Below are positions 12,122 through 29,620 of a stretch of DNA of 48,913 nt, piece by piece. How positions within the stretch are numbered: the stretch's first letter is position 1; every line of letters begins with the position of its first letter. The notes under the pieces are model-generated. The model was not told the DNA's origin and made no database searches. It saw only the letters and a list, made by a program, of their open reading frames with translations. The stretch is taken from the sequence record DRR378314_740. One strand, given 5' to 3'. The position numbers and the translations under genes were made by a program.

Positions 12122-12148
12122 TGTAACAAATAGCCTCACCCTGTGTCT
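12122..12148 (+). promoter_or_regulatory. ECF-type promoter upstream of the DUF547 gene
   Basis: TGTAAC-N15-GTGTCT; same motif recurs elsewhere in the island. Confidence 0.75.
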
Positions 12149-12197
12149 GTGACCACACCCTTCACCCTGCAATTTGATGATCATCCTGGGAGTGGTT

Positions 12198-13043
12198 ATG
12201 TTTTTTCTTCAGAGGTTTATCGTCGTACTAGGCTTGGTTCTTTGTTCGAGCATCACGGAGGCGGGGGTCAACTCCGAGCTCTATGCGAACTATCAGCGCC
12301 TGTTGTCCGACTATGTCATTGAAAAGCCACTGTCCGGGAATGGTCTCGTGTCGGCTTTCAACTACAAAGTCGCTTTAGCGGATGAGAACCTCGAGCAAAT
12401 AACGACAGCTCAACATGAAGCCCTTAAAGCGTTTGACCCTCAAAAATTGGACGGGTCTGAGGAGGCCGTGGCCTTCTGGATAAACGCCTACAATTTTTTC
12501 ATGCTCTCCCAGGTGCTGACGGACCGGCCGAGTGGCGAACTCGTCTCGTCCGTCTGGGATTACGGTGGCCGGTTGAATCCCTTTGTCGACAGTGTGTTCG
12601 AGCGGAAAATATTCAATATTGGTGGGCGTTCCTATAGCTTGAATGAGATTGAGAAGGAGATTCTGCTTGGCGAGCAATTCGCTGCAAAAGGCTGGAAGGA
12701 TGCGCGGGTCCACTTTGCGGTGAACTGTGCATCCGTTGGTTGCCCGCCGTTGCGGGATGTTATCTACACCGCCGACAATCTGGAAAACCTGCTGGCGGAA
12801 AACACCAGACGGGCATTCGCAACCGACCGCCACCTCAGGATCGTAGGGAATACTCTGCATGTCACCGAGCTGTTCAAATGGTATGAAGAGGACTTCGCAG
12901 CGGCTTCCGGTTCACGGAAGGCATTCATTGCGGAGTGGGTGGATTCGTCGGTGGCGGATCGCGTTGCAGCAGCGTCGGAGATGAAGTTCATCGATTATGA
13001 CTGGGCACTGAACAAACCATCCAATTTTCCGGAGTTCCGTTAG
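12198..13043 (+). CDS. Exported DUF547-domain protein
   Basis: Signal peptide; AFWINAYN, SLNEIEKEIL, DARVHFAVNCASVGCPPL, YDWALN motifs. Confidence 0.88.
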   Translation: MFFLQRFIVVLGLVLCSSITEAGVNSELYANYQRLLSDYVIEKPLSGNGLVSAFNYKVALADENLEQITTAQHEALKAFDPQKLDGSEEAVAFWINAYNFFMLSQVLTDRPSGELVSSVWDYGGRLNPFVDSVFERKIFNIGGRSYSLNEIEKEILLGEQFAAKGWKDARVHFAVNCASVGCPPLRDVIYTADNLENLLAENTRRAFATDRHLRIVGNTLHVTELFKWYEEDFAAASGSRKAFIAEWVDSSVADRVAAASEMKFIDYDWALNKPSNFPEFR

Positions 13044-13071
13044 TCACTGTCGCTGAATACGGTCCATAGGA

Positions 13072-13101
13072 AAAGCCGCTATGCCCAAGCATGGCGGCTT
13101 T
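13072..13101. terminator. Bidirectional intrinsic terminator
   Basis: AAAGCCGCTATGC-CCAA-GCATGGCGGCTTT between convergent genes. Confidence 0.75.
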
Positions 13102-13113
13102 GGCTATCGTTGG

Positions 13114-13272
13114 TTATTTCGCAGAGACTTCAATACCCGCAACCTTCTCTACGGTTTTGTGTGGATAGCTTCGCGCTTCATTTGCCCGGTCGGCCTGGCC
13201 GTTCATCGCCAATGCGGTAGTGGCGGAGAATGACAGTGCAATAGCAGCGAAAATCAGTGTCAGTTTTCTCAT
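13114..13272 (-). CDS. Small (52 aa) secreted protein of unknown function
   Basis: MRKLTLIFAAIALSFSATTALA signal peptide with AxA site; GAGG RBS; own ECF-type promoter and a terminator. Confidence 0.75.
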   Translation of the reverse strand: MRKLTLIFAAIALSFSATTALAMNGQADRANEARSYPHKTVEKVAGIEVSAK

Positions 13273-13332
13273 AGGTTGATGCCTCGTGTTCATGATGTTG
13301 TGCGGGGCTTTCATGCCGCGCTTACGAGGTAT

Positions 13333-13360
13333 AGACACCCAACGGCCCTAACAAGTTACA
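13333..13360 (-). promoter_or_regulatory. ECF-type promoter for the small secreted protein
   Basis: Minus strand TGTAAC-N16-GTGTCT. Confidence 0.7.
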
Positions 13361-13492
13361 GGCTTTCAGTAGGCAGAGATCAAAAAATTCAGAGATGTAT
13401 AAATAAGGAAACGAACTAGAAATACGCCTATCCATCCCGTTTCGTTGTTTTCATAATGATCATTCAAGAATAAGTCGCAGAGGAGAAACGCC

Positions 13493-13654
13493 ATGAGCCG
13501 CGTACTCGCTATTGTTCTGGTCTTTGCCAGTTCGCTGGCAATGGCTGGAAGTGATACAACATCGCCACTGGTGGATGCCGGGTGGCTACAGGCCAACCTT
13601 GATCGGGACGATCTTGTTGTGCTGGATATCCGACCGCTCAGGGAGAACTGGTAA
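13493..13654 (+). pseudogene. Truncated exported rhodanese/sulfurtransferase (N-terminal 53 aa only)
   Basis: RBS AGGAG; MSRVLAIVLVFASSLAMAGSDTTSPLVDAGWLQANLDRDDLVVLDIRPLRENW*. PLVDxxWL...DLVVLDIR is the typical start of tandem-rhodanese sulfurtransferases. Not in the ORF track. Confidence 0.7.
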
Positions 13655-13680
13655 CTCGCGATAGCGCTGTCCTGACTCCT

Positions 13681-14427
13681 TCAAACCGGGTCGGTCGCCA
13701 GAATTTTCTTGAGGAAGTCTTTCGTCCGCGGATCCTTGGGATTGTAAAAGATCTCACCGGGCGGCCCTTGTTCCACAATTCGGCCGCCGTCGATAAAGAT
13801 CACACGGTCTGCGACGTCCCGGGCGAACGACATCTCGTGGGTAACCACCATCATGGTCTGGCGTTCCGAGGCCAGCTTTTTCATCAGACCCAGCACTTCC
13901 TCCACCCATTCCGGATCCAGTGAAGAAGTGGGTTCGTCAAACAGGATGACCTCGGCCCCGGTCGCCATTGCACGGCCAATACCAACCCGCTGTTGTTGGC
14001 CTCCGGACATGGATGCCGGGTAGGCGTCTGCCTTGTCAGCGAGGCCGATCTGTTCGAGTATTTCACGGCCGCGTTGGTACGCCTTTTCCTTTGGCCAGCG
14101 ATCCACCACCAGTAACCGTTCAGCGATGTTCTGCAATGCGGTCTTGTTGGAAAACAGGGCGTAGTTCTGGAACACAAAGGCCGTTCGCCGGCGCATGGAA
14201 AGGATGTCCGCACGGCTGGCACGGTTCACATCCACCGACAGGTCACCCACGGTCATGGTGCCGGTGGTGGGTTGTTCCAGAAAATTGATGCAGCGAAGCA
14301 GGGTTGATTTCCCGGTGCCGGAAGGGCCAATGATCACGACGATTTCACCCTTCTCGATCGTCAGGTCGATACTGTCGAGAACCACGGCCTTGCCGAAATG
14401 CTTACTCAGTGATTCCAATTTGATCAT
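13681..14427 (-). CDS. Polar amino acid (cystine-type) ABC ATPase
   Basis: [43 protein letters not shown]. Confidence 0.93.
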
Positions 14428-15098
14428 CGGCTATAGGCCTTGTTCAGACGGGTTTCCAGATAGTGCTGAAGCTTGGAGAGTATCTCGACCACAATCCAGT
14501 ACATGATGGCGGCGACGATGAAGGCCTCAAAATAGAGGAAGCTTCCGGCAGCCTCTTTCTGGGTGGCACCCATCAGTTCGGTGACTCCCAGGGTAAACGC
14601 CAGGGAGGTGGCCTTGATCATGTCGATGAAGTAGTTCATCAGCGTGGGCAGAGCCACCCGGGTGGCCTGGGGCAGAACGATCCGTCGCATCAGTTGGCCG
14701 TTGGTCATACCAATGGACAGCGCAGCCTCGGTCTGGCTGCGATCAACACCCACGATGGCGGCGCGGATCGATTCGGCCATATAGGCGGAGAAATGCAGGG
14801 TCAGGCCCATGATGGTCGCGGTGACGCCATCGATGACCGTCAGGGCGCTCACGAGTTGCGGCAGGCCGTAGTAGAACAGGAACAGCTGCACCAGCAGCGG
14901 CGTGCCCCGGAAGAAGGAGATGAATACGATCGTCAGCTGGTTGAGTACCGGGATGCGCAGCACCCGGACAACGGCAAAGAGGCAGGCGAGGATCAGCGCC
15001 AACACCATCCCGATACCGGCCAGTTGCAGGGTCAGTGGCAGGTACCTGAGTAGCACAGGTACCAACCCGAGCATGTATTCGACGTTCAACACGTCCAT
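14424..15098 (-). CDS. Polar amino acid (cystine-type) ABC permease
   Basis: [42 protein letters not shown] (EAA loop). Confidence 0.92.
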
Positions 15099-15124
15099 AG
15101 GGAGTCAGGCCTTGGTAGTGCCCC

Positions 15125-15880
15125 TCAGGGCTGGGTGATGTCCGTGCCGAACCACTTCTCGGAAATGGACGCCAGGGTACCGTTGTCGCGCAGGGTTGCG
15201 AGGGCTTTGTTGACCTCATCCCGCAGCGCCCGTCCGGCCTCGGTGTCGCGGAACGGATAGGCATTGGTAATCTGGGAGAACGTGGGGCCGGCGAGCTCCA
15301 GTGGCAGTGGCTTTTCCTTGATGATCTGGCTGGCACTGACTCGGTCCATCACGAAGGCGTCTACGCGGCCGAGAGCGGTATCGCGTTCCAGATTGCTCTC
15401 ATAGGTTTTGATGGTGATTTCGTCTGCGTAGGGCAGTTCCCGCAGCAAGGCCTCGAAGTTGGAACCCAGGTTCACCGCAACGGTCTTCCCCTTGAGGTCT
15501 TCCACGCTTTCGACCTCGGTGTTGCCCTTTTTAGTCACCACCTGGGCGCCGTCATAGACGTAGGGTTCGCTGAAGATGTACGCCTTCTGACGCTCCTCGG
15601 TGATGGTGATCTGGTTGGCAACGGTGTCGATGCGGCCGGACTCCAGCATGCCAAACAGGCCGGAGAAGTTGGCGGTCTGATACTGGATATCGCGCCCCAT
15701 CTCCTCGCCAATGGCATTCATGACATCGACCTCGAAGCCCTTGAGTTCATCCTGCTCCACAAAGGTGAACGGGAAGTACTGGCCCGACATACCGACTTTC
15801 AAGGGGTCTCCCTGGGCAAGAGCCGGAGCACTTACCATCATGGATACGATGATCAACGAATGAATCAGTAGTGTTTTCAT
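15125..15880 (-). CDS. Polar amino acid ABC binding protein (FliY/TcyA-like, probably cystine)
   Basis: ATG 15880 with GGAGG RBS and signal peptide; GMSGQYFPFTF, LESGRIDTVANQITITEER. Confidence 0.88.
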   Translation of the reverse strand: MKTLLIHSLIIVSMMVSAPALAQGDPLKVGMSGQYFPFTFVEQDELKGFEVDVMNAIGEEMGRDIQYQTANFSGLFGMLESGRIDTVANQITITEERQKAYIFSEPYVYDGAQVVTKKGNTEVESVEDLKGKTVAVNLGSNFEALLRELPYADEITIKTYESNLERDTALGRVDAFVMDRVSASQIIKEKPLPLELAGPTFSQITNAYPFRDTEAGRALRDEVNKALATLRDNGTLASISEKWFGTDITQP

Positions 15881-16028
15881 AGAACCTCCTTCCAGAGTTT
15901 GTCGCTTTAACAGCTCACGCTGGGACGAGCATGGAGTTATCATACGCGCCCTTGGTGTTTATTGAGAGTCGCGATAGCCGAGACGATACCTTCGGTATTT
16001 ACGGCCCGACGGGGTCGTCACTTTGTTG

Positions 16029-16700
16029 TTATTGGTTAAGTTGAAGCCAGCGCGCCAGCTGCGAGCCGGGGTGTCGGCTGATGGACCACGGCAACCATAC
16101 CATCACCGCCAGAATAACCGCGCCTGCGGCGACGGTCAGCACCGGATTCAACGTGAACGTGTTCCCCAGGCCTGCAAACACCACCGTCATTGGCAGCATG
16201 CCAACGAAGGTGGCAATGGCAAAGCGCCAGGCGCGTATGGCGGTGACGCCGGCGGCGTAGCTGATCAGGGCGAACGAAAAAACGGGGATCAATCGGGTCA
16301 GCAGGATGGCGATGGTCATAAAGCGTTGCGAGCCATCCCGTGCAAGCACAGGGTTGTCCGGAAAACGTTTGCAGATCACGTCGCGTCCGAGGCAGCGGGC
16401 AATCCAGAACGCTGCCATGGCACCCAGCAAGGCACCGGTTGCTGCAATGGCGGTTCCCTCAAGCAAACCAAACGCCAGGCCTGCGGTTGCACTGACCGGA
16501 AGCGTGGGAATCGGGCCTATCACAACCGCCATCGTCATCAGCAGCATCAGCAACAGTGGGCCGGCAGCCCCCTGGCTTTTCAGCCATTGCGAAAGGGCAT
16601 CTGGAGACAGGTCCGCAGGTAGTCCCAATATCTGCAGCAACCACCAGGCACCTGCCAGGGTAGCCATTACCACGACAACGATGGCGATTCTCAGTGTCAT
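16029..16700 (-). CDS. TVP38/TMEM64 (DedA/VTT) membrane protein
   Basis: PIPTLPVSATAGLAFG, LTRLIPVFSFALISYAAG; ATGA-coupled to the upstream gene. Confidence 0.88.
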   Translation of the reverse strand: MTLRIAIVVVVMATLAGAWWLLQILGLPADLSPDALSQWLKSQGAAGPLLLMLLMTMAVVIGPIPTLPVSATAGLAFGLLEGTAIAATGALLGAMAAFWIARCLGRDVICKRFPDNPVLARDGSQRFMTIAILLTRLIPVFSFALISYAAGVTAIRAWRFAIATFVGMLPMTVVFAGLGNTFTLNPVLTVAAGAVILAVMVWLPWSISRHPGSQLARWLQLNQ

Positions 16701-17449
16701 TCCGCCCATCGGAACCCCCGGTAATCGAATCCTTGTTCCAGCGTGGGTTTAACGACGTCGAAATAGGGGGAGGCGTCGAAATCCCGGGGCGCAAATAGAG
16801 AATGATGGCGAATCCGGAAGTACTCGCGCTTTTGCGCGGCGCAAGCCGGATCACCTTCGGATTCGGAGAGGCTTACGGGCAGTATCGGGTAATGGAGGGC
16901 CTGGAACCCCTCGGCGATGAATGTGGAGCAGATCGCCCGCGTGGGATCACCGCTGCCAAGGGCCAGAAGCGAACGTCGGTAACGGGACGGTACCGGTGGC
17001 GTCGGGCAAAGGTAGCGTGCCAGATCCCAGACGTTTTTCAGGTCGTACTGGTGGCCGAGCCGGCTTTTCGAGTAATCCACAAGCTTGCCGATATCATTGT
17101 CAGTGAGTCCGACCGGGCGACAGATGCGGGTATGGGTGTTGCGGTATGCCGACAACGAAAGCGGGCGAATACCTTCCTCAAGATCCGCCTCGATCAGTAC
17201 ATGCGGCTCGCCATTGTCGGCGGCGCCAAGGCCTGCGCTCGGTCCCAGGTAAAGGGCGGCGTGGGACCAGGTTGACTGAGTCAGGTACTTGATGGCCACA
17301 CTGATTCGCGTATTTCCCTCCACCAGTAAGACGTCGCCGGGCTGAAGAGTTTTTTTCAGGGCTTCCCAGGCGGAGGTGCGCACCGAGTGTTGGGTGACCT
17401 GCTTTGAAAGGTAGGTGGTCAGGCGCCGTGACAGCCAGTTCAGTAGCAT
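16697..17449 (-). CDS. YiiX/YebB-like permuted papain/NlpC-P60 cysteine amidase
   Basis: LQPGDVLL, WSHAALY (His) preceding ICSTFIAEGF (Cys), the permuted catalytic order; LGHQYD. Confidence 0.8.
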   Translation of the reverse strand: MLLNWLSRRLTTYLSKQVTQHSVRTSAWEALKKTLQPGDVLLVEGNTRISVAIKYLTQSTWSHAALYLGPSAGLGAADNGEPHVLIEADLEEGIRPLSLSAYRNTHTRICRPVGLTDNDIGKLVDYSKSRLGHQYDLKNVWDLARYLCPTPPVPSRYRRSLLALGSGDPTRAICSTFIAEGFQALHYPILPVSLSESEGDPACAAQKREYFRIRHHSLFAPRDFDASPYFDVVKPTLEQGFDYRGFRWAE

Positions 17450-17487
17450 TGGTACTCCGGTTGTTGGCGGTAGGTTGATAGCAACAA

Positions 17488-17514
17488 AGACAAACAACCG
17501 GACTGACTGTTACA
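17488..17514 (-). promoter_or_regulatory. ECF-type promoter for the amidase-DedA operon
   Basis: Minus strand TGTAAC-N15-TTGTCT. Confidence 0.7.
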
Positions 17515-17530
17515 ACGCCCTGGCGCCGTT

Positions 17531-17941
17531 CTACGCAGCAGTGGGAGCCGGTTGCCTCGAAAGCGTAAGCGTATCGTAATCACGAAGCAGATACAGCGCC
17601 GCGCATGCGGCAAGCATGGGCCAGGCCGCAAAGAACAGAAGGTTATCGAAAGGCTGCAGGTACTTTGCGAATGAAGACAGGGTTGAAGCACCGTGGAAGA
17701 TCAGGAGTGCGCCGTAAGTCCAGGTTTTCAGTAGGCCAGCAACAAACACCAGTATCAGCACAAGTTGTGCGATGCCAATAAGGTAGACGGCTGTCTCGCC
17801 AAGGCCATCGAGCCCGTAAAATGAATCGAATACCTTGATAGCGTGCTCAGGCTGAACCAGCTTATCCAGGGTCCAGACCAGAAAAACAACGAAAACACCA
17901 AGTCGAAGTAACAGCAGGGCAAGGGGTAACTGCTTGGGCAT
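17531..17941 (-). CDS. DoxX-like membrane protein
   Basis: LALLLLRLGVFVVFLVWTLDKL, about 4 TM segments; GGAG RBS. Confidence 0.78.
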   Translation of the reverse strand: MPKQLPLALLLLRLGVFVVFLVWTLDKLVQPEHAIKVFDSFYGLDGLGETAVYLIGIAQLVLILVFVAGLLKTWTYGALLIFHGASTLSSFAKYLQPFDNLLFFAAWPMLAACAALYLLRDYDTLTLSRQPAPTAA

Positions 17942-17961
17942 TCCATATCTCCTTTCGAATT

Positions 17962-18005
17962 TTGAATGATCGTTCCAGAGACAGAGCGGCGGTGTGGGAG
18001 TTCCA
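17962..18005 (-). promoter_or_regulatory. ECF-type promoter plus adjacent TetR-type operator for the DoxX gene
   Basis: Minus strand TGGAAC-N15-CTGTCT (17979-18005) immediately followed by palindrome TTGAATGATCGTTCCA (17962-17977). Confidence 0.65.
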
Positions 18006-18088
18006 TTGGCAAGCGAAAAGAGTGGTTCTGTCAGAGCCAGGTGGAACGTCCGGAAGGGGCGGGTGTCGTTACATGAAAGCGAAGAGCG

Positions 18089-18352
18089 TCACGGGGCAGA
18101 CGTGTCGTTTCCGGAGCGCCGAGCGTTGAGCGACTCACTGACCCGTTCGTCAATCCGGCGTACCAGATCTTCGTCTGCTTGTTGACTGGAGTGCGTGCTC
18201 ATAAGCTCTATGCTGGCCTTCAGGCTGCCAATGAAACTGCGACAGCGACCGCACATCAGTAGGTGCATCTTCACAGACATCACCTTCCCAGCGCCCAATT
18301 CACCGTCAATGTAATCACTGGCGATGCGAGCCAGGTCCCGGCACATTAACAT
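18089..18352 (-). CDS. Soluble zinc-binding anti-sigma factor (zf-HC2/ZAS)
   Basis: MCRDLARIASDYIDGEL...HLLMCGRC (HxxxCxxC); no TM segment; overlaps the ECF sigma stop. Confidence 0.9.
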   Translation of the reverse strand: MLMCRDLARIASDYIDGELGAGKVMSVKMHLLMCGRCRSFIGSLKASIELMSTHSSQQADEDLVRRIDERVSESLNARRSGNDTSAP

Positions 18353-18966
18353 TCGCCTGTCTCCTGAAATGCCTCAACCATCAGAAAGATTTTCTGCCGT
18401 GCCCGATGCAGGAGCACGCGCAGGTTAGAGGCGCTGACATCCAGAATGTTACACACGTCGTCGGATTTATGCTGATGCGCTTCGTACAACATCAATGCTG
18501 ATCGCTGTGTTTCCGGCAGTGCGGACAGGTGTTGATCGAGGCAGTCGCTCAGCGCACCGTTCTCCATCAGCGCCTGGGCGGACTCATTGAATTTCAGGCT
18601 CGGCGGTGTGGCCCAGCGACCATTGGGCGCAAAGCGGGCGGCGAGGTCCGGGTCCAGCGCTTCCGAAAAATCCGCGTTTACTTCCCTCCTGGTCTTTCGG
18701 AGATGATTCTTGGCCCGGTTTGCTACGATACGGTGCAGCCATGTCTTCAGGCCGGAACGGCCCTCAAATGTCCGAACGGCGTCGATAACCGTCACCCAAC
18801 AATCCTGGACAATTTCCTCTGCCGAGGCGTGATCAAGGTAAAAGCGGGCGACGGCCATCATGCCAGGGGTGTATAAACGCACAGCGTCGCGAAAGGCGCC
18901 CTGGTTCCCCGACTTCAGGCCGGTGATGAGGATGTCGTCGTCAGATTGATGTGTTGTGGTTTCCAT
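18346..18966 (-). CDS. ECF sigma factor
   Basis: Region 2 AEEIVQDCW...FEGRSGLKTWLHRIVANRA; region 4 LPETQRSALML...SNLRVLLHRAR. Confidence 0.93.
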   Translation of the reverse strand: METTTHQSDDDILITGLKSGNQGAFRDAVRLYTPGMMAVARFYLDHASAEEIVQDCWVTVIDAVRTFEGRSGLKTWLHRIVANRAKNHLRKTRREVNADFSEALDPDLAARFAPNGRWATPPSLKFNESAQALMENGALSDCLDQHLSALPETQRSALMLYEAHQHKSDDVCNILDVSASNLRVLLHRARQKIFLMVEAFQETGEC

Positions 18967-18979
18967 TCCGTATACCCCA

Positions 18980-19006
18980 GGACACCTGCGTTAGAGCGTT
19001 GTTATA
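18980..19006 (-). promoter_or_regulatory. Possible autoregulatory ECF promoter
   Basis: Minus strand TATAAC-N15-GTGTCC, two mismatches to the island consensus. Confidence 0.45.
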
Positions 19007-19079
19007 AACATGTTATTGGACATCCAGGGCGGCCTGGACAATGGTATGGCTATAGTCGCAGCCATTAGTTCCAGTAATG

Positions 19080-19095
19080 ATGAGTGACTGCTCAA
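19080..19095. promoter_or_regulatory. TetR-type operator between the ECF gene and the reductase operon
   Basis: Reverse complement TTGAGCAGTCACTCAT matches 13/16 of the 11459 operator. Confidence 0.6.
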
Positions 19096-19116
19096 AAAAT
19101 TTTAGACCCGGGCTGC

Positions 19117-19143
19117 TGTAACATCCAGCGCTTTGGCGTGTCT
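19117..19143 (+). promoter_or_regulatory. ECF-type promoter for the reductase-radical SAM operon
   Basis: TGTAAC-N15-GTGTCT. Confidence 0.75.
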
Positions 19144-19184
19144 CTCAGAGCAACCGTTTTCACTTTTAATCTATGGATTTAGCT

Positions 19185-21374
19185 ATGAACTCCAAAAAGC
19201 TCGTTTTGCTGCTGGTTATCGGTGCCCTGGTGGCATTGTTTATTGGCTTTGGCGGCCACGAGATACTGACGCTGGAAAACCTGCAGAGACACCAGGCGTC
19301 CATTGACCAGTGGATCAGTCAGAACCTGCTGGTGGCGGTGCTTGGCTTTGCCGGTGTCTATGTTGTGGTGACCGCGCTTTCATTGCCCGGTGCCGCGATC
19401 ATGACCCTGGCCGGCGGCGCGTTTTTCGGAAATATCTACGGGCTGATTGCGGTGTCCATTGCCTCAACCATTGGTGCCTCCCTCGCCTTTCTGGTAGCTC
19501 GCTTCCTGATGCGCGATACCCTGCGCAACAAGTACGCTGAAACCGTAGCGAAGATGGATCGTGGCATTCAGAAAGACGGCGCCTTTTACCTGGCAACGCT
19601 GAGATTGGTGCCGGTGTTTCCTTTCTTCCTGATCAACCTGGCCATGGGTTTGACGGCCATGAAGCTGAAAACCTATGCGCTGGTCAGTTGGGCGGCGATG
19701 CTGCCGGGCACTTTTGTGTACGTAAACGCAGGCACGCAGCTGTCGACGATTGAGTCCACTGGCGACATTGTCTCTGCGAACATTCTGCTCTCTTTCGCCC
19801 TACTGGGTATCTTCCCGCTGATTGCCAAGTTCATTGTCGGCTTTATCCGCAAACGCCGGGTGTACGCCGGCTGGCAGAAGCCTGAATCGTTTGACTACAA
19901 CCTGCTGGTGATCGGTGGTGGTTCTGCTGGGCTGGTGTCAGCCTATATTGCCGCCGCGGTGAAGGCCAAGGTGGCACTCATTGAGCGAGACAAGATGGGG
20001 GGCGACTGCCTGAACACTGGCTGCGTGCCGTCCAAGGCCCTGATCCGCAGCGCCAAGGCCGCCGACACCCTGCGCCACGCCAACCGCTATGGCCTGGAAT
20101 CGGTCCCGGTGAAGGGCTCCTTCAAAAATATCATGAACCGCGTTCAGGACGTGATTGCCCAGGTGGAACCCCACGACTCGCCCGAGCGCTATCGAAAACT
20201 GGGTGTTGACTGCATCGCTGGCACCGCGAGTTTCGTATCGCCCTGGGAGTTGGAGGTTGTCCACAATGACGGCCGCACCGAGCGCCTGACCGCTCGCAGT
20301 ATTGTCGTCGCTACCGGTGGCAAACCGGCCATGCCACCGATTCCCGGGCTGGCGGACATGGAACCACTGACGTCTGATAACCTCTGGTTGCTGGATGTGC
20401 AGCCTGAGCGTCTGTTGGTGCTCGGTGGCGGCCCCATTGGCTCTGAACTGGCTCACGCTTTCGCACGTCTGGGCAGCAAAGTGACCCAAGTGGAAATGGG
20501 CGAGCGCCTACTGGCCAAGGAAGACGCTGATGTCTCTGACGTCATCCGTAAACGGTTTGAGCAGGACGGTATTGATCTTCGGTTGAACCATGCGGCGAAA
20601 GAGTTTGCGGTGGAAGACGGAGAAAACGTGGCGTACTGCGAACACAACGGCGAACGCGTGAGGATTCCGTTTGACCAGGTTCTGGTGGCCGTTGGCCGTG
20701 CCGCCCGCACTGATGGCCTGGGGCTGGAAAAAATCGGGGTGGACACCCTGCCCAATGGCACGGTGCCGGTGGAAGAAGACATGAGTCTGCGCTTCCCCAA
20801 TGTCTTCGCCTGCGGCGATGTGGCTGGCCCCTACCAGTTTACCCACGCGGCGGCTCATCAGGCCTGGTACGCGGCGGTGAATGGTCTGTTCGGGCAGTTC
20901 AAGCGGTTCAAAGTCGATTACCGGGTGATGCCCTGGGTGACCTTTACCTCGCCAGAAGTGGCCAGGGTCGGGCTGAGCGAGGCGGAAGCAAAAGAGAAAG
21001 GTGTGGCTTACGAGGTCACGCGTTATGGCTTGGACGATCTGGACCGGGCCATCGCCGAGAGCGAAGCCTATGGCTTTATCAAAGTGCTGACGCCGCCGGG
21101 CAAGGATAAGATTCTGGGTGCCGTGGTGGTGGGTGCGCACGCCGGTGAAATACTGGCGGAGTTCACCCTCGCCATGAAGCACGGGCTGGGCCTGAACAAG
21201 ATTCTCGGCACCATCCACCCCTACCCGACCTGGAACGAATCCGCCAAATACGCGGCCGGCGAGTGGAAGCGTGAACACGCGCCCCAGGGAATTCTCAAAC
21301 TGCTTGAAAAGCTTCACGGCTGGCGTCGCGGCAAGCGGGCCGAAGACAAAGCCGCACGAGAAATCACAACGTAA
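19185..21374 (+). CDS. Fusion of an N-terminal DedA/VTT membrane domain and a flavin disulfide reductase (LpdA/MerA/RclA superfamily)
   Basis: VTT motif LRLVPVFPFFLINLAMG; GGGSAG, GGDCLNTGCVPSK, GGGPIG, TIHPYPT. Alternative start 19173. Confidence 0.9.
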   Translation: MNSKKLVLLLVIGALVALFIGFGGHEILTLENLQRHQASIDQWISQNLLVAVLGFAGVYVVVTALSLPGAAIMTLAGGAFFGNIYGLIAVSIASTIGASLAFLVARFLMRDTLRNKYAETVAKMDRGIQKDGAFYLATLRLVPVFPFFLINLAMGLTAMKLKTYALVSWAAMLPGTFVYVNAGTQLSTIESTGDIVSANILLSFALLGIFPLIAKFIVGFIRKRRVYAGWQKPESFDYNLLVIGGGSAGLVSAYIAAAVKAKVALIERDKMGGDCLNTGCVPSKALIRSAKAADTLRHANRYGLESVPVKGSFKNIMNRVQDVIAQVEPHDSPERYRKLGVDCIAGTASFVSPWELEVVHNDGRTERLTARSIVVATGGKPAMPPIPGLADMEPLTSDNLWLLDVQPERLLVLGGGPIGSELAHAFARLGSKVTQVEMGERLLAKEDADVSDVIRKRFEQDGIDLRLNHAAKEFAVEDGENVAYCEHNGERVRIPFDQVLVAVGRAARTDGLGLEKIGVDTLPNGTVPVEEDMSLRFPNVFACGDVAGPYQFTHAAAHQAWYAAVNGLFGQFKRFKVDYRVMPWVTFTSPEVARVGLSEAEAKEKGVAYEVTRYGLDDLDRAIAESEAYGFIKVLTPPGKDKILGAVVVGAHAGEILAEFTLAMKHGLGLNKILGTIHPYPTWNESAKYAAGEWKREHAPQGILKLLEKLHGWRRGKRAEDKAAREITT

Positions 21375-21411
21375 ACCGTTTTAATAGATTCAACGCAAAC
21401 ACGGAGCAGCT

Positions 21412-22374
21412 ATGCCCCTGACCCAAACCGCCGAAAAACGCATACCCGCCGTGGAAGTGCTGGAACCCAGGGCCCACGACAGCTGGACCCACACCCGCAA
21501 CGGCGACCCGCGCGGCTACATTGATTCCGACAGGCTCAAGGAGCTGTGGATTCACACCGGCACCGCCTGCAACCTGGCCTGCCCATTCTGTCTGGAGGGG
21601 TCGCACCCCGGCGATGGCCGTATTCCAGGCATGAAGCTGAGCGACGTGAAGCCGTTTATCCACGAAGCCCTGGACATGGGCGTGGAGCAGTTTTCCTTCA
21701 CCGGCGGCGAGCCCTTCGTGATCCGCGATTTCGTGAACATCCTGGATTACGCCAGCCACCACCGCCCCTGCTTTGTGCTCACCAACGCGACCGACCCGCT
21801 GCTCAAACGCAAACACCAGGTGCTGCCGCTGCTGGACAACCCCTACCGGATCCACTTCCGTGTCAGCCTGGACTTCCCCGACCGCGCCCGCCACGACGTG
21901 GACCGTGGCGAGGGCAGTTTCGACAAGGCATTGGAGGGTATCCGCTGGCTGGTGGATCAGGGATTCCAGGTGTCGATTGCCCGCCAGACCGATCCGGAGG
22001 AGATTCCGGCGGATGTGGAGGCGGCTTTCCGCGAGATTCTGCGGGACTGGGGTATTTCCGAGACCCTGGCGTTTACCGCGTTCCCGGACCTCGGTACGCC
22101 GGGCTCCGAAGACGGTAGCCCAGAGATCACGGAAACCTGCATGGAGAAGTACCCGACCAAGGAAGCGCGGTCGCATTTCATGTGCACTTATACGCGAATG
22201 CTGGTCAAGCGGAACGATCAGGTGCGGGTGTATGCCTGTACGTTGGTGGATGATGATCCGCAGTATGACCTTGGGGGGACGCTGGCGGAGAGCATGGATG
22301 AGCGGATTATGCTTCGGCATCACCGGTGTTTTGCCTGTTATCGGTTTGGGGCTAGTTGTTCGGCGCCTGGGTAG
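21412..22374 (+). CDS. Radical SAM protein with Cys-rich C-terminus (distantly ArsS-like)
   Basis: CNLACPFC, FTGGEPF, VLTNA, RVSLD; C-terminal FMC...YAC...RCFACYRFGASC. Confidence 0.9.
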   Translation: MPLTQTAEKRIPAVEVLEPRAHDSWTHTRNGDPRGYIDSDRLKELWIHTGTACNLACPFCLEGSHPGDGRIPGMKLSDVKPFIHEALDMGVEQFSFTGGEPFVIRDFVNILDYASHHRPCFVLTNATDPLLKRKHQVLPLLDNPYRIHFRVSLDFPDRARHDVDRGEGSFDKALEGIRWLVDQGFQVSIARQTDPEEIPADVEAAFREILRDWGISETLAFTAFPDLGTPGSEDGSPEITETCMEKYPTKEARSHFMCTYTRMLVKRNDQVRVYACTLVDDDPQYDLGGTLAESMDERIMLRHHRCFACYRFGASCSAPG

Positions 22375-22424
22375 TTTTTTTGGCTTTGGGAGATGGGCTT
22401 TGTAGGACTGGTTGCTGGGGATTG

Positions 22425-22521
22425 GCGGCCTGGGGGTGGTGTTTTATTTCCTTGGGAAAAAGAACTCGCTTCGCTCAGACACCTTTTTCCTGGCGGAAAT
22501 AAAACACCACCCCCAGACCGC
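22425..22521. repeat. Long palindromic intergenic element (REP/MITE-like hairpin)
   Basis: Perfect 22-bp inverted repeat (22430-22451 / 22495-22516), inner GGAAAAAG/CTTTTTCC stem, loop AACTCGCTTCGCTCAGACAC. Confidence 0.8.
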
Positions 22522-22576
22522 GGTTGAGTCACTGCAATTCGTTGGATTAAAACAAATAACGAGGAAAAGACAGACA

Positions 22577-23980
22577 ATGAACTTCACGGAAGCGACCCTG
22601 TTTTGGGGGTTTTTGGTTGTTTATGGGGTGGTGATGTATGTGTTGTCGCCCAAGAGCAAGAACGCCAATTCGTTCTACAAGGGGGCGGATGATCAGGGGA
22701 ATCCGGTGGGGCAGTGGTCGCTGACGGCGAGTATTTTTATCAGCTGGATCTTTGCCAAGTCGGTCACCAACGCTGCCAACCTGGGGGCGGCCTATGGTGT
22801 GACCGGGGGGCTAGCGTATGCCAGTTACTGGCTGTCGATTCCGGTGGCCGGTTATATCATCTATCTGATTCGCACGCAGACCGGTGCCCGCAGCCTGCAG
22901 GATTTCCTCACCTCCCGCTTTGGCCGACTCGCCAGTCTGGCGTTTGCGGCGGCGATTCTGATTCGGTTGTACAACGAAGTTTGGAGTAACACTGCCGTGG
23001 TGGGTGGTTACTTCGGGCTGCCTGGGGAGTGGGAATACTACGTGGCCGCCATGCTGTTTACCGCCTTTACCCTCGCCTACAGTCTCAAGGGCGGTTTGCG
23101 GTCGTCGATCTTCACCGACGTGATCCAGGCCTTCGTGTTTGTGTTCTTTGTCGGGGCGGTGCTGTTCCTGATTGTGCCGGCTAACGACACCAGCGCCCTG
23201 CTGACCAATGGCGAGTTCAAACTGAACGCCGGGTTTGATCTGTTGCTGGTGGCATTGCTCCAGATGTTCAGCTACCCCTTCCATGATCCTGTGCTGACGG
23301 ATCGCGGTTTCGTGAACAAAGAAAAAACCATGCTCAAGAGCTTTGTGGTGGCCGGGCTGCTGGGCTTTGTGGCGGTGTTTATCTTCAGTCTGGTGGGGGT
23401 GCATGCGCGACTGAATGGCATCGAGGCCATGGGTAATGCCCCGGCTGCGGTGGGGCAATCGCTGGGACTGGCGGCGTTGTTCTTCATGAGCGTGGTGATG
23501 ATGACGTCTGCCGGTTCCACGCTCGATTCCACTTTCAGCTCCCTGGCCAAGTCGCTGGCGGTGGATCTGCCGCGGCTGGCGAAGCGGGCGAAAGACCGCT
23601 TGCCGAGTGTGCGAGTGGGTGCGGTTATCATGATTGTCTTCGCACTGCTGGGTAACCTGCCGATGTTTGCCGGTACCGACATTCTCAAGGCCACGACCAT
23701 TTCCGGCACCATGGTGATGGGGCTGGCGCCGGTGTTCCTGTTCTATGGGTTTACACGGTGGTCGCCCTGGAGTTTCCACCTGAGCTTCTGGACCGGTCTG
23801 GGGCTGGGTGTGTTGCTCGCAACGGGCCTGATTCCGGCAAGTTGGGCCATTGGTGACGGAAAATACGCCATGCTGCTGGGTGTGAACGCCTACGGCTTCC
23901 TGATCTGTTCCGCTGGATTCTTCGTGCCGCTGATTGTTCGCCGGCTTGCCGGGCGTTCATTGGCGGCGGGCGAAGCGTAA
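22577..23980 (+). CDS. Sodium:solute symporter family transporter
   Basis: ATG 22577 with GAGG upstream; many TM segments; YSLKGGLRSSIFTDVIQ and SAGSTLDS SSF motifs. Confidence 0.88.
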   Translation: MNFTEATLFWGFLVVYGVVMYVLSPKSKNANSFYKGADDQGNPVGQWSLTASIFISWIFAKSVTNAANLGAAYGVTGGLAYASYWLSIPVAGYIIYLIRTQTGARSLQDFLTSRFGRLASLAFAAAILIRLYNEVWSNTAVVGGYFGLPGEWEYYVAAMLFTAFTLAYSLKGGLRSSIFTDVIQAFVFVFFVGAVLFLIVPANDTSALLTNGEFKLNAGFDLLLVALLQMFSYPFHDPVLTDRGFVNKEKTMLKSFVVAGLLGFVAVFIFSLVGVHARLNGIEAMGNAPAAVGQSLGLAALFFMSVVMMTSAGSTLDSTFSSLAKSLAVDLPRLAKRAKDRLPSVRVGAVIMIVFALLGNLPMFAGTDILKATTISGTMVMGLAPVFLFYGFTRWSPWSFHLSFWTGLGLGVLLATGLIPASWAIGDGKYAMLLGVNAYGFLICSAGFFVPLIVRRLAGRSLAAGEA

Positions 23981-23991
23981 GGGGGCGGGTG

Positions 23992-24942
23992 ATGACCGAA
24001 GGCCGAACCTGCCCTCTGGCGTATCGCTACAGCCCTGCAGAGTTATGTTCGGCCCCCCAACAGGCGACCGGTGATGTGCTGTACGTCATTGGTGGCCTTT
24101 ACGGGAACCCCTATGCCCTGGATGAGATTGAGCGGATGGCCCAGGCGGAGGAGCGCCAGGGGCATCGGGTCACACTGGTGTTTAACGGGGATTTCAACTG
24201 GTTCAACGCCAGTGACCGTCTGTTCCGCGAGATCAACAACCGGGTGCTGGACCATACCGTCATCCTGGGCAATGTGGATTATGAGTTGGCCAACGCCAAT
24301 GAAGGCGCTGGCTGCGGCTGTGCCTATCCGGACTTTGTGGATGAGGGCGTGGTGGAACGTTCCAACGCCATCATGGAGCGGTTGCAGGCGGTGGCCGGAG
24401 ATCACCCGGATATCCAGGCCCGGTTGTCCTTGCTACCACGGTATCGGTGCCTGTTATTTGGAGGCCTAAAGGTTTTGGTGGTTCATGGAGATCCCGAATC
24501 CTTGGCGGGGTGGGGGTTGGCCCATGAATCCTTTGTGGCCGGCAACGAGTCGACGCTTGCGGGCTGGTTCGATCAGACCGGTGCCGACGTGATCGTTTCC
24601 ACCCACACCTGCCTGCCGGTGCTCTGGTCTGAGCGCCTGGAGGGGCGTTGTCGAGTCGTTGCCAATAATGGCTCGGCGGGGATGGGTAACCTGTTCGAGG
24701 ACCCGCGGGGGCTGATCACTCGCATCGGTCTGGCAAGCCCCGTGGCTGAGCCCGTTGTCGGTCTTGAATGCGAAGGATTGAGTGTCACCCTGTTGCCGGT
24801 CGACTACGATCTTGATGCCTGGCTCTCGCAGTTCGACCGACGTTGGCCGGCCGGTTCCGCGGCAGCGGTGTCATACCGAAATCGGATCGTTGGAGGGACG
24901 TTACTCCGTGCAGAGGACGTCACATTTCCGCGTCGTATTTAA
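23992..24942 (+). CDS. Metallophosphoesterase-fold protein with degenerate motifs
   Basis: IGGLYGN, FNGDF, LGNVD, VVHGDP, STHTC, VANNGSAG in calcineurin-like motif order; extra GAGCGCAYP. Confidence 0.75.
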   Translation: MTEGRTCPLAYRYSPAELCSAPQQATGDVLYVIGGLYGNPYALDEIERMAQAEERQGHRVTLVFNGDFNWFNASDRLFREINNRVLDHTVILGNVDYELANANEGAGCGCAYPDFVDEGVVERSNAIMERLQAVAGDHPDIQARLSLLPRYRCLLFGGLKVLVVHGDPESLAGWGLAHESFVAGNESTLAGWFDQTGADVIVSTHTCLPVLWSERLEGRCRVVANNGSAGMGNLFEDPRGLITRIGLASPVAEPVVGLECEGLSVTLLPVDYDLDAWLSQFDRRWPAGSAAAVSYRNRIVGGTLLRAEDVTFPRRI

Positions 24943-25057: not shown

Positions 25058-25092
25058 TTACCGCTAACTTTTTGAGGCGAATCGATCACGTT

Positions 25093-25608
25093 ATGACATC
25101 AGAAGGCTCGAATACCACCGCCATCACCCTCCGCACGCCGGTCAAGGATGATGGCTACAGGCTCCACCAGTTGGTCGCGGAATGCCCGCCGCTGGACCCC
25201 AACTCAATCTACTGCAACCTCCTGCAGTGCAGCCACTTTGCCGAAACCGGCGTGGCGGCTGAGATAAACGGCGATCTGGTCGGCTTTATTTCAGGATATA
25301 TCCCTCCCCAACAGCCCGAAACCGTTTTTGTCTGGCAGGTGGCCGTGCACGAGAAAGGTCGTGGACAGGGTCTTGCCAAGCGGATGCTCAAGGCGATCGT
25401 GGCCCGGGACGCTTGCAAGGGCGTTACCCACATGGAAACCACCATCACTGAAGACAATGAGGCTTCCTGGGCGCTTTTCCGGTCCTTTGCCCGTGATATG
25501 GGTGCAGAACTCACTTACCACGAGCACTTCGAGAAAGACACCCACTTTGGCGGCAAGCACGACTCTGAGTTCCTGCTCCGCATCGGGCCTTTCACAAAGT
25601 CGGTGTAA
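25093..25608 (+). CDS. ectA: Diaminobutyrate acetyltransferase
   Basis: CPPLDPNSIYCNLLQCSHF, VFVWQVAV, METTITEDNEASWALF. Confidence 0.96.
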   Translation: MTSEGSNTTAITLRTPVKDDGYRLHQLVAECPPLDPNSIYCNLLQCSHFAETGVAAEINGDLVGFISGYIPPQQPETVFVWQVAVHEKGRGQGLAKRMLKAIVARDACKGVTHMETTITEDNEASWALFRSFARDMGAELTYHEHFEKDTHFGGKHDSEFLLRIGPFTKSV

Positions 25609-25739
25609 CCGTCTTTCCGAATGATCGATACCCCTGTCTGGATCAGCCGGCAGATTGCTGAGGTGAATCTGTCACAACGGCTTTAACCAACGTGCCACCG
25701 CACAGCTACCTCGAACCTGACATGCTAAGAGGCAAGACA

Positions 25740-27008
25740 ATGGAACTTTTCAAGTCGACCGAATCCGAAGTACGTGTTTATTCCCGCGCCTTTCCGGTGA
25801 TTTTCAATCGTGCGAAGAACGCGCACCTGTACACCGAAGATGGCAAGGAATACCTGGATTTTCTGGCCGGCGCCGGGTCATTGAATTATGGCCACAACAA
25901 CGACATTCTCAAAAAAGCGCTGCTCGAGTACATTGAAAGCGATGGTGTCAGCCAGGGGCTGGATATGTTTACCACCGCCAAGCACGATTTCATCGAGTCC
26001 TACAAAAAGCACATCCTGGACCCGCGTGGCCTGAACTACAAAATGCAGTTCACCGGCCCGACCGGCACCAACTGTGTGGAAGCGGCGCTGAAACTGGCCC
26101 GCAAGGTGAAAGGCCGTAATGGCATTGTGTCCTTCACCAACGGCTTCCACGGCGTGACCATGGGCGCGGTGGCGGCCACGGGCAACAAGCACCACCGTGG
26201 TGGTGTCGGTACCCCGCTGGGCAACGTGGATTTCATGTTCTATGACGGCTACCTGGGTGACAACGTGGACACCCTGGAGATCATGGACAAGGTATTGTCG
26301 GATGGCTCTTCCGGCTTTGAGCTGCCGGCGGCGGTGATCGTTGAAGCGGTGCAGGGTGAAGGCGGCCTGAACGCGGCCCGAGCCGAATGGCTGCAAGGGC
26401 TCGAGAAGCTGTGCAAGAAGCACGATATCCTTCTGATCGTCGACGATATCCAGGCGGGGAACGGCCGCACGGGTGAATTCTTCAGCTTTGAGTTCGCGGG
26501 TATCAAACCGGACATCGTGACGGTGTCCAAGTCTCTGAGCGGTTATGGTCTGCCCATGGCGCTGGTGTTGTTCAAGCCGGAACTGGATGTCTGGGGCCCG
26601 GGTGAGCACAACGGCACCTTCCGGGGTAACAACATGGCCTTCGTTACCGCTCGGGCGGCCGTTGAGACATACTGGAAAGACGACGCCTTCGCGAACGAGG
26701 TCAAAGCCAAGACCCAGGTGCTGGGCGACGGGCTTCAGGCCATCTGTGACAAGTATCCCGGCGAATTCCGCATGAAAGGCCGGGGCATGATGCGTGGTAT
26801 CGAAGCCACACACGCCGAAGTAACGGACAGGATCACCAGTCGTGCCTTTGAAAAGGGGCTGATTATTGAAACCAGCGGTCCCAACGACGAAGTGATCAAG
26901 TGCCTGATGCCGCTGACCACCAGCGAGGACGATCTTCGCAAAGGTGCTAAACTTTTGGCTGAAAGCGTGGATGAAATCATGCAGGAAGGGATGAGCAAGG
27001 CCTCTTGA
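25740..27008 (+). CDS. ectB: Diaminobutyrate-2-oxoglutarate transaminase
   Basis: [48 protein letters not shown]. Confidence 0.97.
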
Positions 27009-27059
27009 GACGCCGGTTAATTCCCCAAATTCATTCTGCAGGATAACGACGGTAACACT

Positions 27060-28502: not shown

Positions 28503-28549
28503 TTCTCCCGGGGCTGCTCGGTCCTTGATGGTCTCGATGGGTGTCCGGC

Positions 28550-28565
28550 TCCCCGGCGACGGGGA
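28550..28565 (+). terminator. Short hairpin after ask
   Basis: TCCCCG-GCGA-CGGGGA; no U-tract. Confidence 0.35.
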
Positions 28566-28621
28566 ATCCATGGTGCTGTTTCGCGCGTATTCTCTGGAAA
28601 TTCGTGATCGGAACCTGTGCC

Positions 28622-29620
28622 ATGAAAGAACGTCTGGGCCCGGGGCCGTCTCCGACCATAGCCCACTCCGGTGAAACGGAATCCCTGGTAGGGCTGTACT
28701 TCAGGGATGCGTCCCGTTATGAACGACTGACTGATGATGGGGAACGTCGGCTTTCACGAAGGCTGTCGTTCTGTTATCGCGTTATCTCCACAGAACTCGC
28801 GCTGCCGGAAGGCACTCCTCAAACCTTCCGTGAAGTGGTGGGAAGCCTGGGTGATGCCTGTGCTTTTTCCACCCGCTGTCGTCGTGCCTACCATCTTGCG
28901 ACCTCAAGCCGTCAGCGGCTGATCCGCAGCAATCTTCGGCTCGCGGTGCACATCGCGCGCCGCTACGCTAATCGCGGCATTCCCATGTCGGATGTGATCC
29001 AGGACGCCAACGTGGGTCTGATCAAGGCCGTTGAGCGTTTTGACCCCACCAAGGGCTTTCGCTTTTCCACTTATGCCTATTGGTGGATCAGTGAAGAGGT
29101 GAAGCGGTGTATGAAACGGGGCACCCGCCTGGTGCATACGCCCGAGAACGTGGTGGATGAAATCCGGCTCCTGCAGAGGACGTCCCTGATGTTGCATCAG
29201 ACTCTGGGGCGGACCCCGTCACAGAGCGAACTGGCACGGGAAATTGAAGTGTCTCCCTCACGTATTGGTGAACTGCGGGCCCTGGCAACCATGGAAGTAT
29301 CGGTGGATCTGCCGGTCGGCATGGAAGGCGGTATTACGCTGGGTGACAGCCTCAGCGCCGATGATCAGTCCGCGCCGGACCACGACATGGCCCAGCGCGA
29401 CCGCAAGAGAACCTTGGCTTCCCTGCTGGCGGAATTGAGTTCCCGGGAAAAAGACGTGCTGGCTCGGCGTTACGGGTTGGGCCTGCCGGAACCGGAAACT
29501 CTACAGGTGATTTCCGACGACCTGGGTATCAGTCGGGAGCGGGTACGTCAGATAGAGAAAAGCGCCCTGAAGAAACTGCAGGGTCGCTTTGCCGACCCCG
29601 AGGAAGAGCTCCGGGGCTAG
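28622..29620 (+). CDS. Divergent RpoD/RpoS-family sigma-70 factor
   Basis: Region 1.2 (LYFRDASRYERLT), region 2 (SNLRLAV...GLIKAVERFDPTKGFRFSTYAYWWI), region 4 (SRERVRQIEKSALKKL); no region 1.1. Confidence 0.9.
   Translation: MKERLGPGPSPTIAHSGETESLVGLYFRDASRYERLTDDGERRLSRRLSFCYRVISTELALPEGTPQTFREVVGSLGDACAFSTRCRRAYHLATSSRQRLIRSNLRLAVHIARRYANRGIPMSDVIQDANVGLIKAVERFDPTKGFRFSTYAYWWISEEVKRCMKRGTRLVHTPENVVDEIRLLQRTSLMLHQTLGRTPSQSELAREIEVSPSRIGELRALATMEVSVDLPVGMEGGITLGDSLSADDQSAPDHDMAQRDRKRTLASLLAELSSREKDVLARRYGLGLPEPETLQVISDDLGISRERVRQIEKSALKKLQGRFADPEEELRG

Follow-up and report, generated by a model that had tools for sequence, protein, structure and literature searches.

A Marinobacter ECF sigma factor and its zinc-binding anti-sigma lie amid copies of a shared, putative promoter motif

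Does a sigma factor encoded within a gene cluster read the promoters that lie around it? The question is raised by a stretch of DNA of 48,913 nucleotides (nt) from sequence record DRR378314_740, here called the window. In it, the gene of a sigma factor of the extracytoplasmic function (ECF) type is followed by that of a small zinc-associated anti-sigma (ZAS) protein, and both are surrounded by copies of a two-part motif made up of a TGTAAC box and a GTGTCT box. A preliminary description of the window held that six copies of this motif define the regulon of the local pair. We find that interpretation largely right, if incomplete. Comparison of sequences makes it likely that TGTAACA-N14-GTGTCT sites are promoters read by RNA polymerase carrying the local ECF factor, which would be held by the anti-sigma until a signal arrives. 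The window is assigned to Marinobacter by its sigma protein, which is 97% identical to those of M. algicola DG893 and M. salarius R9SW1.

All six sites were re-extracted, by eye and by regular expression, at the positions and on the strands given for them, and each is oriented toward a gene, with the end of its -10 box 13-60 nt before the start codon (Table 1). The gene labels also agree with Pfam, which gives DUF547, Peptidase_C92, VTT/DedA, DoxX (weakly), zf-HC2, Sigma70_r2 with Sigma70_r4_2, and a VTT+Pyr_redox_2 fusion. The motif is built like an ECF promoter: its -35 box contains AAC and its -10 box GTC, the spacer is fixed, and the sites face a gene whose start is close by. The copy before the small-peptide gene is the sole one of the six with an N16 spacer, and an A/T tract lies directly 5' of the copy before the reductase operon. 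Strict TGTAAC-N15/16-GTGTCT occurs three times in the window, against 0.00 expected from 100 dinucleotide-preserving shuffles. The more degenerate pattern of the preliminary description has seven matches, where 300 first-order Markov simulations averaged 0.16 with a maximum of 3; this figure is partly circular and overstates the case, since the pattern was drawn from the sites themselves. Its seventh match, at 46553 on the minus strand, is antisense within a 460-aa open reading frame (ORF) and is probably a chance match. No Rfam family reached its gathering score between positions 11000 and 25000 of the window, and a search of the relevant intergenic regions turned up no consensus promoter of the sigma-70 type.

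Table 1. Candidate promoter copies and genes around the sigma/anti-sigma pair. Distances run from the end of the -10 box to the start codon. PWM, score under a position weight matrix trained on strict sites, by which the TGGAAC variant is not fairly scored (the DoxX site falls below the threshold of 8).
Feature	Position	Strand	Details
Promoter copy 1	12122..12148	+	TGTAAC-N15-GTGTCT; 49 nt from DUF547 ATG (12198); PWM 28.3
Promoter copy 2	13333..13360	-	TGTAAC-N16-GTGTCT; 60 nt from 52-aa ORF ATG (13272); PWM 19.2
Promoter copy 3	17488..17514	-	TGTAAC-N15-TTGTCT; 38 nt from C92-amidase ATG (17449); PWM 26.1
Promoter copy 4	17979..18005	-	TGGAAC-N15-CTGTCT (variant -35); 37 nt from DoxX ATG (17941)
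Promoter copy 5	18980..19006	-	TATAAC-N15-GTGTCC; 13 nt from ECF ATG (18966); PWM 14.7
Promoter copy 6	19117..19143	+	TGTAAC-N15-GTGTCT; 29 nt from reductase ATG (19173); PWM 27.5
Seventh copy	18042..18068	+	TGGAAC-N15-GTGTCG; PWM 13.5
GGAACT box	19067..19072	-	about 100 nt upstream of ECF start codon; unrelated to the TGTAAC motif
DUF547 gene	12198..13043	+	Pfam PF04784, 95.7 bits; ATG 12198 in frame with TTG 12174
52-aa ORF	13114..13272	-	signal-peptide-like N-terminus; no Pfam family
DedA/VTT membrane protein	16029..16709	-	Pfam PF09335
C92 permuted-papain amidase	16697..17449	-	Pfam PF05708
DoxX-like membrane protein	17531..17941	-	Pfam DoxX weak: 21.5 bits, below cut-off 23.6, E = 3.7e-4
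ZAS anti-sigma	18089..18352	-	87 aa, soluble; Pfam zf-HC2, 32 bits against cut-off 22.2
ECF sigma factor	18346..18966	-	206 aa, regions 2 and 4 only; Pfam PF04542, PF08281
DedA/VTT-fused flavoprotein disulfide reductase	19173..21374	+	733 aa; VTT+Pyr_redox_2; CLNTGC redox motif
Radical SAM protein	21412..22374	+	second gene of reductase operon
SSF-type transporter	22412..23980	+	third gene of reductase operon
Calcineurin-like phosphoesterase-like protein	23989..24942	+	fourth gene of reductase operon

The motif recurs well beyond the window. For comparison we used 80 loci from Marinobacter, 1.376 Mb in all, each with the orthologous sigma gene at its centre. In these loci TGTAAC-N16-TGTC has 204 matches and the N17 spacing 11, and every other spacing from N10 to N23 has 0-6 each. 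The consensus is TGTAACA-N14-GTGTCTnT, equivalent to a GTAAC-N17-GTCT core. Its flanks and spacer are unconserved, which argues that the motif is not a repeat element. The great majority of strict sites (188/214) lie directly 5' of one of 13 recurring gene families, with medians of 29-75 nt from the end of the -10 box to the start codon. When 59 distinct ECF-reductase intergenic regions are aligned with MAFFT, TGTAACA and GTGTCT stand out as islands with an identity of 0.9 or higher on either side of a variable spacer, with an A/T tract upstream.

Anchoring the counts on orthologous genes, with the strict motif required within 160 nt upstream of the gene start, gives the same picture gene by gene. 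The motif precedes 56/64 reductase, 30/50 C92, 5/5 small-peptide and 15/60 radical SAM orthologs, and DUF547 orthologs carry it in 9/15 cases (11/15 with a loose motif). Control genes do not have it (0/55 for the SSF transporter, 0/45 for the fourth operon gene and 0/10 for a neighbouring CMD-family gene). Homologs of the 52-aa ORF lie 3' of the motif in 6 loci. DoxX orthologs have TGGAACTC...xTGTCx at -64 or -73 in 8/17 cases, with a diverged spacer, and what recommends the putative DoxX promoter is solely this conservation before DoxX genes. In relatives, the motif also precedes genes for DUF3179, a TTL-PqqD protein, radical SAM, cytochrome c, glutaredoxin and other proteins. The six copies claimed for the window are real, but as a definition of the regulon they are incomplete: relatives place the motif before further genes, and a seventh, gene-less copy at +18042 was overlooked. 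Across species the predicted target set varies around a core formed by the reductase operon and C92.

In many relatives (such as loci L003, L009, L047, L066 and L077) the motif stands before the gene of the TTL-PqqD protein, about 6-10 kb from the ECF gene. This protein of 807 aa combines an ATP-grasp domain like that of tubulin-tyrosine ligase with a weak match to PqqD, and its gene frequently lies divergent to a second reductase-like gene. In relatives the motif also precedes small peptide genes (52 and 64 aa). A TTL-PqqD protein and small peptides under one switch may point to peptide modification chemistry.

The two regulatory proteins have the features expected of such a pair. In the sigma protein, Pfam places Sigma70_r2 at residues 30-94 and Sigma70_r4_2 at residues 141-193; at about 200 aa and lacking region 3, it has the make-up of an ECF (group 4) factor. 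It scores 72.4 bits against a cut-off of 42.9 on the NCBIfam sigma70-ECF superfamily model. Among the NCBIfam equivalog models listed, none reaches its cut-off for the sigma factor, and the best named sigma family after one equivalog, TIGR02943 (Sig70_famx1), gives 85.5 bits where 162.2 is required. The Pfam matches to regions 2 and 4 are 46 residues apart, and in the alignment with E. coli sigma-E a span of 190 residues stands against 181. Three cysteines are conserved among its homologs, Cys142 in 86/95, Cys172 in 93/95 and the C-terminal Cys206 in 84/95. Cys142 and Cys206 lie near the edges of, or outside, the Pfam region-4 match, which begins one residue before Cys142.

The start of the anti-sigma gene overlaps the stop of the sigma gene (18346-18352), and a ZAS ORF is found 3' of the ECF gene in 80/81 Marinobacter sequences and 14/14 distant homologs. 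Residues C4, H30, C34 and C37 of the anti-sigma are invariant in 94/94 homologs, providing the H-x3-C-x2-C signature and the upstream ligand of a ZAS protein. With hydropathy peaking at 0.82 over 19 residues, it has no predicted membrane helix. The 'antisigmaE' subfamily model NF052368 scores 49.5 on this protein, just below its cut-off of 50, and the RsrA model TIGR03988 scores 23.2 bits, below 62.5. Among solved structures there is no close homolog of either protein. By analogy, it is plausible that the anti-sigma is a redox switch.

Distant ECF homologs (31-46% identity) are present in 14/300 other genomes of the class. A GTAAC...GTC-like site lies within about 500 nt of the operon in 7/14 of them; one homolog adjoins DUF547, and another adjoins DoxX, radical SAM and reductase genes. 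A locus from another genus (L106), whose ECF homolog is 38% identical, has TetR, CMD-family, DoxX, polyketide-cyclase-like and SAM-methyltransferase genes 3' of ECF/ZAS, with a TGGAAC-N18-GTCC site and an A/T tract before the CMD gene. Further 3', on one strand, come genes for a radical SAM protein (57% identity) and a DedA-reductase (59% identity), so the reductase/radical SAM pair accompanies this sigma family beyond Marinobacter. Some Marinobacter (locus L008; genomes G392, G417 and G382) have a second ECF gene, 45-47% identical and a few kb from the first, and in L008 this second gene is preceded by a motif copy (+4720, minus strand).

A genome-wide scan for the motif had been proposed with the preliminary description and was carried out on the genomes of six relatives in place of the window's own. 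It bore out the clustering of strict matches near the ECF gene, while the TGGAAC variant stayed at background. In total, 24 of 45 matches to TGTAAC-N16/17-TGTC lie within 23 kb of the ECF gene (by genome, 4/7, 6/7, 3/8, 7/12, 0/2 and 4/9); the reversed control pattern has 80 matches in the same genomes. In the closest complete genome, three distant matches are inside or antisense to ORFs. On these counts the gene set is essentially confined to the surroundings of the sigma gene. No second cluster of sites marking another sigma gene was found in the six genomes scanned.

Presence and absence across the genus tie the motif to the sigma gene in another way. Of 151 genomes sampled from the genus, 148 have the reductase and 105 the ECF gene, which leaves 46 without the latter. 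Strict sites average 4.95 per genome with the ECF gene (n=105) and 2.37 without (n=46; Mann-Whitney p = 8e-8, kinship ignored), compared to 7.83 and 7.52 for the control pattern. The strict reductase promoter is found in 56/64 ECF-bearing loci against 22/38 evaluable ECF-less genomes (odds ratio 5.1, p = 0.0013, kinship again ignored). In the remaining 16/38, one or two box positions that are invariant elsewhere have changed, or there are deletions. In one genome the ECF gene is internally deleted, with residues 1-18 and 169-206 left, and the -35 box reads TTTAAC; in several ECF-less genomes C92 or DedA has come to adjoin the reductase promoter directly through a deletion. This pattern of erosion fits relaxed selection after the reader was lost.

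Several observations weigh against reading by the local factor. More than half of the evaluable ECF-less Marinobacter genomes (the same 22/38) keep a perfect reductase promoter, one ECF-less genome has that promoter as its sole strict site genome-wide, and the association statistics ignore shared ancestry. Relatives' genomes encode several other ECF-type sigma factors. Two of the window's own copies belong on this side of the balance as well. The TGGAAC variant found at the DoxX site is at background genome-wide (15 matches versus 22 for the control pattern). Copy 5, before the ECF gene itself, is confined to one clade (at -40 to -42 in 9/78 loci, all close relatives) and is badly placed for translation, with its -10 box ending 13 nt before the ATG.

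These points bear most directly on an alternative in which the sites are real promoters read by another sigma factor encoded elsewhere, alone or in addition, so that the local pair is a mere neighbour or one of two readers. Intact reductase promoters in genomes with no detectable ECF homolog would be explained by it, the other ECF-type genes offer candidates, and TGTAAC is the predicted -35 box of the unrelated group ECF235 in the available text of the ECF classification (PMC7826278). In ECF-less genomes the best match at E <= 1e-8 is an ordinary RpoE (28-30% identity in 5/5 checked), and at E <= 1e-17 there is no match in 37/41. However, a reader elsewhere does not account for the fall of strict sites to about 2.4 per genome when the ECF gene is missing, for the absent C92 promoter (0/11) in cases with C92 adjoining the reductase gene, or for the 16 mutated reductase promoters. 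Nor does it account for similar sites beside distant ECF homologs in other genera, and no other sigma gene in the six genomes has a cluster of sites of its own. We consider this alternative unlikely. The claim that the local ECF factor reads these promoters finds support in their ECF-type build, their fixed spacing, their clustering at the sigma gene and their association with its presence; the reductase promoters kept without it speak against exclusivity.

Within the window, one further gene was considered as a rival reader and rejected. It lies at 28541..29620 (plus strand), 7 kb past the reductase operon. Its product, a sigma factor of 359 aa, has regions 2, 3 and 4 and gets its highest scores from RpoD/RpoS-type models, without reaching their cut-offs. 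RpoD/RpoS-type factors read TTGACA/TATAAT-type promoters, which is why we rejected it. Its 5' neighbours (25072-28502) encode GNAT acetyltransferase, class-III aminotransferase and aspartokinase-like proteins, a trio that we take, as an impression, to resemble ectoine-synthesis genes. In the closest complete genome the match to this sigma gene falls in two separate frames, which may be a frameshift.

Under a second alternative, the two-part motif would be recognised by an ordinary repressor or activator that binds DNA, and would not be a promoter at all. Conserved two-part sites with fixed spacing do also occur as operators. The two boxes, however, are unlike each other and form neither a palindrome nor a direct repeat; they point strictly toward the gene that follows and lie 13-75 nt from its start codon; the ECF -35/-10 pattern fits them, as does the geometry of Neisseria sigma-E promoters; and the only regulator genes that recur with the motif are those of the sigma factor and anti-sigma. 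We regard an operator as highly improbable. That the likeness of the six sites reflects chance or a dispersed repeat, a suspicion fed by the loose pattern built from the sites and by the chance-like match at 46553, is refuted by the shuffles (3 exact sites against 0 expected), by the spacing counts (204 sites against 0-11 at other spacings) and by unrelated flanks and spacers around a motif that is kept before orthologs even as spacers diverge.

A broader proposal would combine some of these elements. The locus would be a two-layer thiol switch governing an undescribed envelope response to thiol stress or hypohalous acid, with a second sigma factor sharing the TGTAAC/GTGTCT specificity. The two layers may be the zinc/cysteine site of the anti-sigma and the sigma triad of C142, C172 and C206, and the core of the response may be the membrane-anchored DedA-flavoprotein disulfide reductase with its radical SAM partner, given the reductase in 148/151 genomes. 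The second sigma factor is suggested by the reductase promoter being intact in many sigma-less species. As a joint claim, this proposal is speculative and doubtful.

Returning to reading by the local ECF factor, we turn to how the sigma gene itself might be expressed. The preliminary description counted the ECF gene's own promoter as a regulon member. A site is present there, with one mismatch in the -35 box, but it is the weakest of the copies, is shared by 9/78 loci, and is overshadowed by another box common to all clades. Copy 5 is probably weak or non-functional and doubtful as an autoregulatory promoter. The other box, GGAACT, has at least 0.9 identity in 59 unique intergenic sequences aligned without bias by MAFFT. 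It may belong to a promoter or operator of its own, from which the sigma/anti-sigma operon would draw its basal expression.

The seventh copy stands back to back with the DoxX promoter and is aimed at the 3' end of the anti-sigma gene, without an ORF of its own. Position 18044 is T in loci L001 and L002 and in contigs of 4/4 RNA runs, which gives TGTAAC at this copy. In locus L003 its equivalent precedes a 323-aa DUF3179 gene, and in other relatives equivalents precede a DUF3179, glutaredoxin or cytochrome c gene. With that gene gone from the window, what remains at +18042 is a promoter left behind by a lost DUF3179 gene, and it could be a source of antisense transcript.

Another match in the same region was tried and rejected. 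TGTAAC-N15-GCCTCT (18453..18427, minus strand), within the sigma gene, was considered as an internal promoter for the anti-sigma. It turns up in 54 loci, and a further 21 have GCATCT/GCATCA in its place; it was rejected because it codes for VCNILDVSASN of sigma region 4 and is missing the GTC box. The look-alike that codes for this peptide is found in most relatives and is a trap for motif scans.

Some features of the surroundings complete the description of the targets. The C92 amidase and DedA ORFs overlap by 13 nt as a two-gene unit (16029..17449), and the reductase operon (19173..24942) has intergenic gaps of 37, 37 and 8 nt. A 53-aa ORF with a signal-like N-terminus (13493-13654, plus strand) stops abruptly just before ABC transporter genes. 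Relatives' contigs depart from the window to the left of about 16013, and in M. salarius an additional gene, of 444 aa, separates DedA from the transporter, so the segment from 13.4 to 16.0 kb seems to have been rearranged between strains. A search of RNA runs returned 24, each with at most 0.13 of the sampled words, and assembled contigs from four RNA runs of three studies were aligned to the window. These contigs of relatives match the window at 90-99% and reach from about 16013 to 19579 at low depth; as contigs they say nothing of transcription starts, strands or levels. The intergenic region between ECF and reductase lies within a single contig of 10 kb.

We propose the following model. 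In the unstressed cell, the sigma factor would be bound and held by the co-translated 87-aa cytoplasmic zinc-binding anti-sigma. A signal acting at the cysteine/zinc site of the anti-sigma, by analogy a thiol-reactive oxidant, would free the sigma factor to bind the motif and turn on a compact set of genes almost wholly beside its own. The predicted set comprises the reductase/radical SAM/transporter/phosphoesterase operon, C92 amidase-DedA, DoxX, DUF547 and the secreted peptide. The main operon would supply a membrane-anchored NAD(P)H disulfide reductase, and the other outputs would be envelope proteins. It is these outputs, together with the studied relatives of the pair, that suggest thiol-reactive oxidants as the signal.

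For a sigma/anti-sigma pair that has been uncharacterised, this provides a sharp promoter definition (TGTAACA-N14-GTGTCT) and a short, testable list of targets. It is also a functional lead for DUF547, DUF3179, DoxX, DedA fusions, the C92 amidase and the TTL-PqqD protein, which would be tied to one stress switch. An orthogonal expression switch could be made from the pair and its promoter, given how compact they are and that they keep almost entirely to a single locus. Loss of the sigma factor in about a third of the sampled Marinobacter genomes, with partial erosion of the sites, amounts to a natural experiment on the decay of orphaned promoters.

As a type, a switch made of a sigma factor and its anti-sigma is textbook; this example is undescribed. 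The regulon was not found in titles and abstracts of the literature on ECF/anti-sigma pairs with DUF547, on Marinobacter ECF regulons or on DedA/mercuric reductase with a sigma factor, and the available part of the supplement to the ECF classification (PMC7826278) does not mention Marinobacter, DUF547 or PF09335. In the available text of that classification, group ECF293 (formerly ECF13/101/117) is described as having a soluble zinc-finger anti-sigma at +1, three region-4 cysteines and an extended linker between sigma-2 and sigma-4; it holds the Neisseria Ecf/RpoE-MseR pair and counts PA3285 among its named members, and its target promoters were not definable across subgroups (PMC7826278). The window pair fits ECF293, as its soluble ZAS protein and three sigma cysteines match the group's description; the named members were set beside it by description.

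Among individual systems, E. coli sigma-E and Pseudomonas AlgU share the two-domain ECF make-up and are the best solved-structure matches to the sigma factor (55-57 bits, residues 6-195). The match is distant, though, and their anti-sigmas RseA and MucA are membrane proteins without a zinc site. In these Marinobacter genomes, the ordinary RpoE-RseA-RseB-RseC operon is a separate locus. SigR of Streptomyces coelicolor belongs to another group (ECF12) and reads a GGAAT...GTT promoter. Its anti-sigma RsrA, a thiol-oxidation switch whose cysteines govern release of the sigma factor, is, like the window's, a soluble ZAS protein, and the spacing of its ligands (C11/H37/C41/C44 in the available text of PMC2893595) matches that of C4/H30/C34/C37. 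With its score on the RsrA model well short of the cut-off, the window anti-sigma is not an RsrA ortholog.

In Haemophilus influenzae, RpoE2-HrsE is likewise an ECF factor with a ZAS-type anti-sigma, cytoplasmic and of 67 aa, that controls adjoining genes and a DoxX-like operon; the available text reports little autoregulation and induction by HOCl and H2O2 (PMC7907618). Unlike the set predicted here, its targets are msrAB and a DMT transporter, and its inducer and binding were shown by experiment, whereas the window is read from sequence.

The sigma-E-MseR pair of Neisseria meningitidis and N. gonorrhoeae also has a small soluble ZAS protein encoded directly 3' of the sigma gene and a small regulon with a DoxX-family gene. 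The two differ in their outputs. The window has no methionine sulfoxide reductase, DUF692 or DUF2063 genes, and its predicted outputs are the DedA-flavoprotein reductase operon, the C92 amidase, DUF547 and the small peptide. The Neisseria -35 box ends in G, whereas the TGTAAC of the window ends in C. As given in the available text, the Neisseria sigma-E consensus is GTAAGGTT-N12/13-CGTCTAA, equivalent to GTAA(G)-N16/17-GTCT, and the MseR residues are Cys4, His30, Cys34 and Cys37 (PMC2893595). The window sites thus share the GTAA-N17-GTCT geometry of the Neisseria promoters, and the window anti-sigma has its predicted zinc ligands at the identical four positions.

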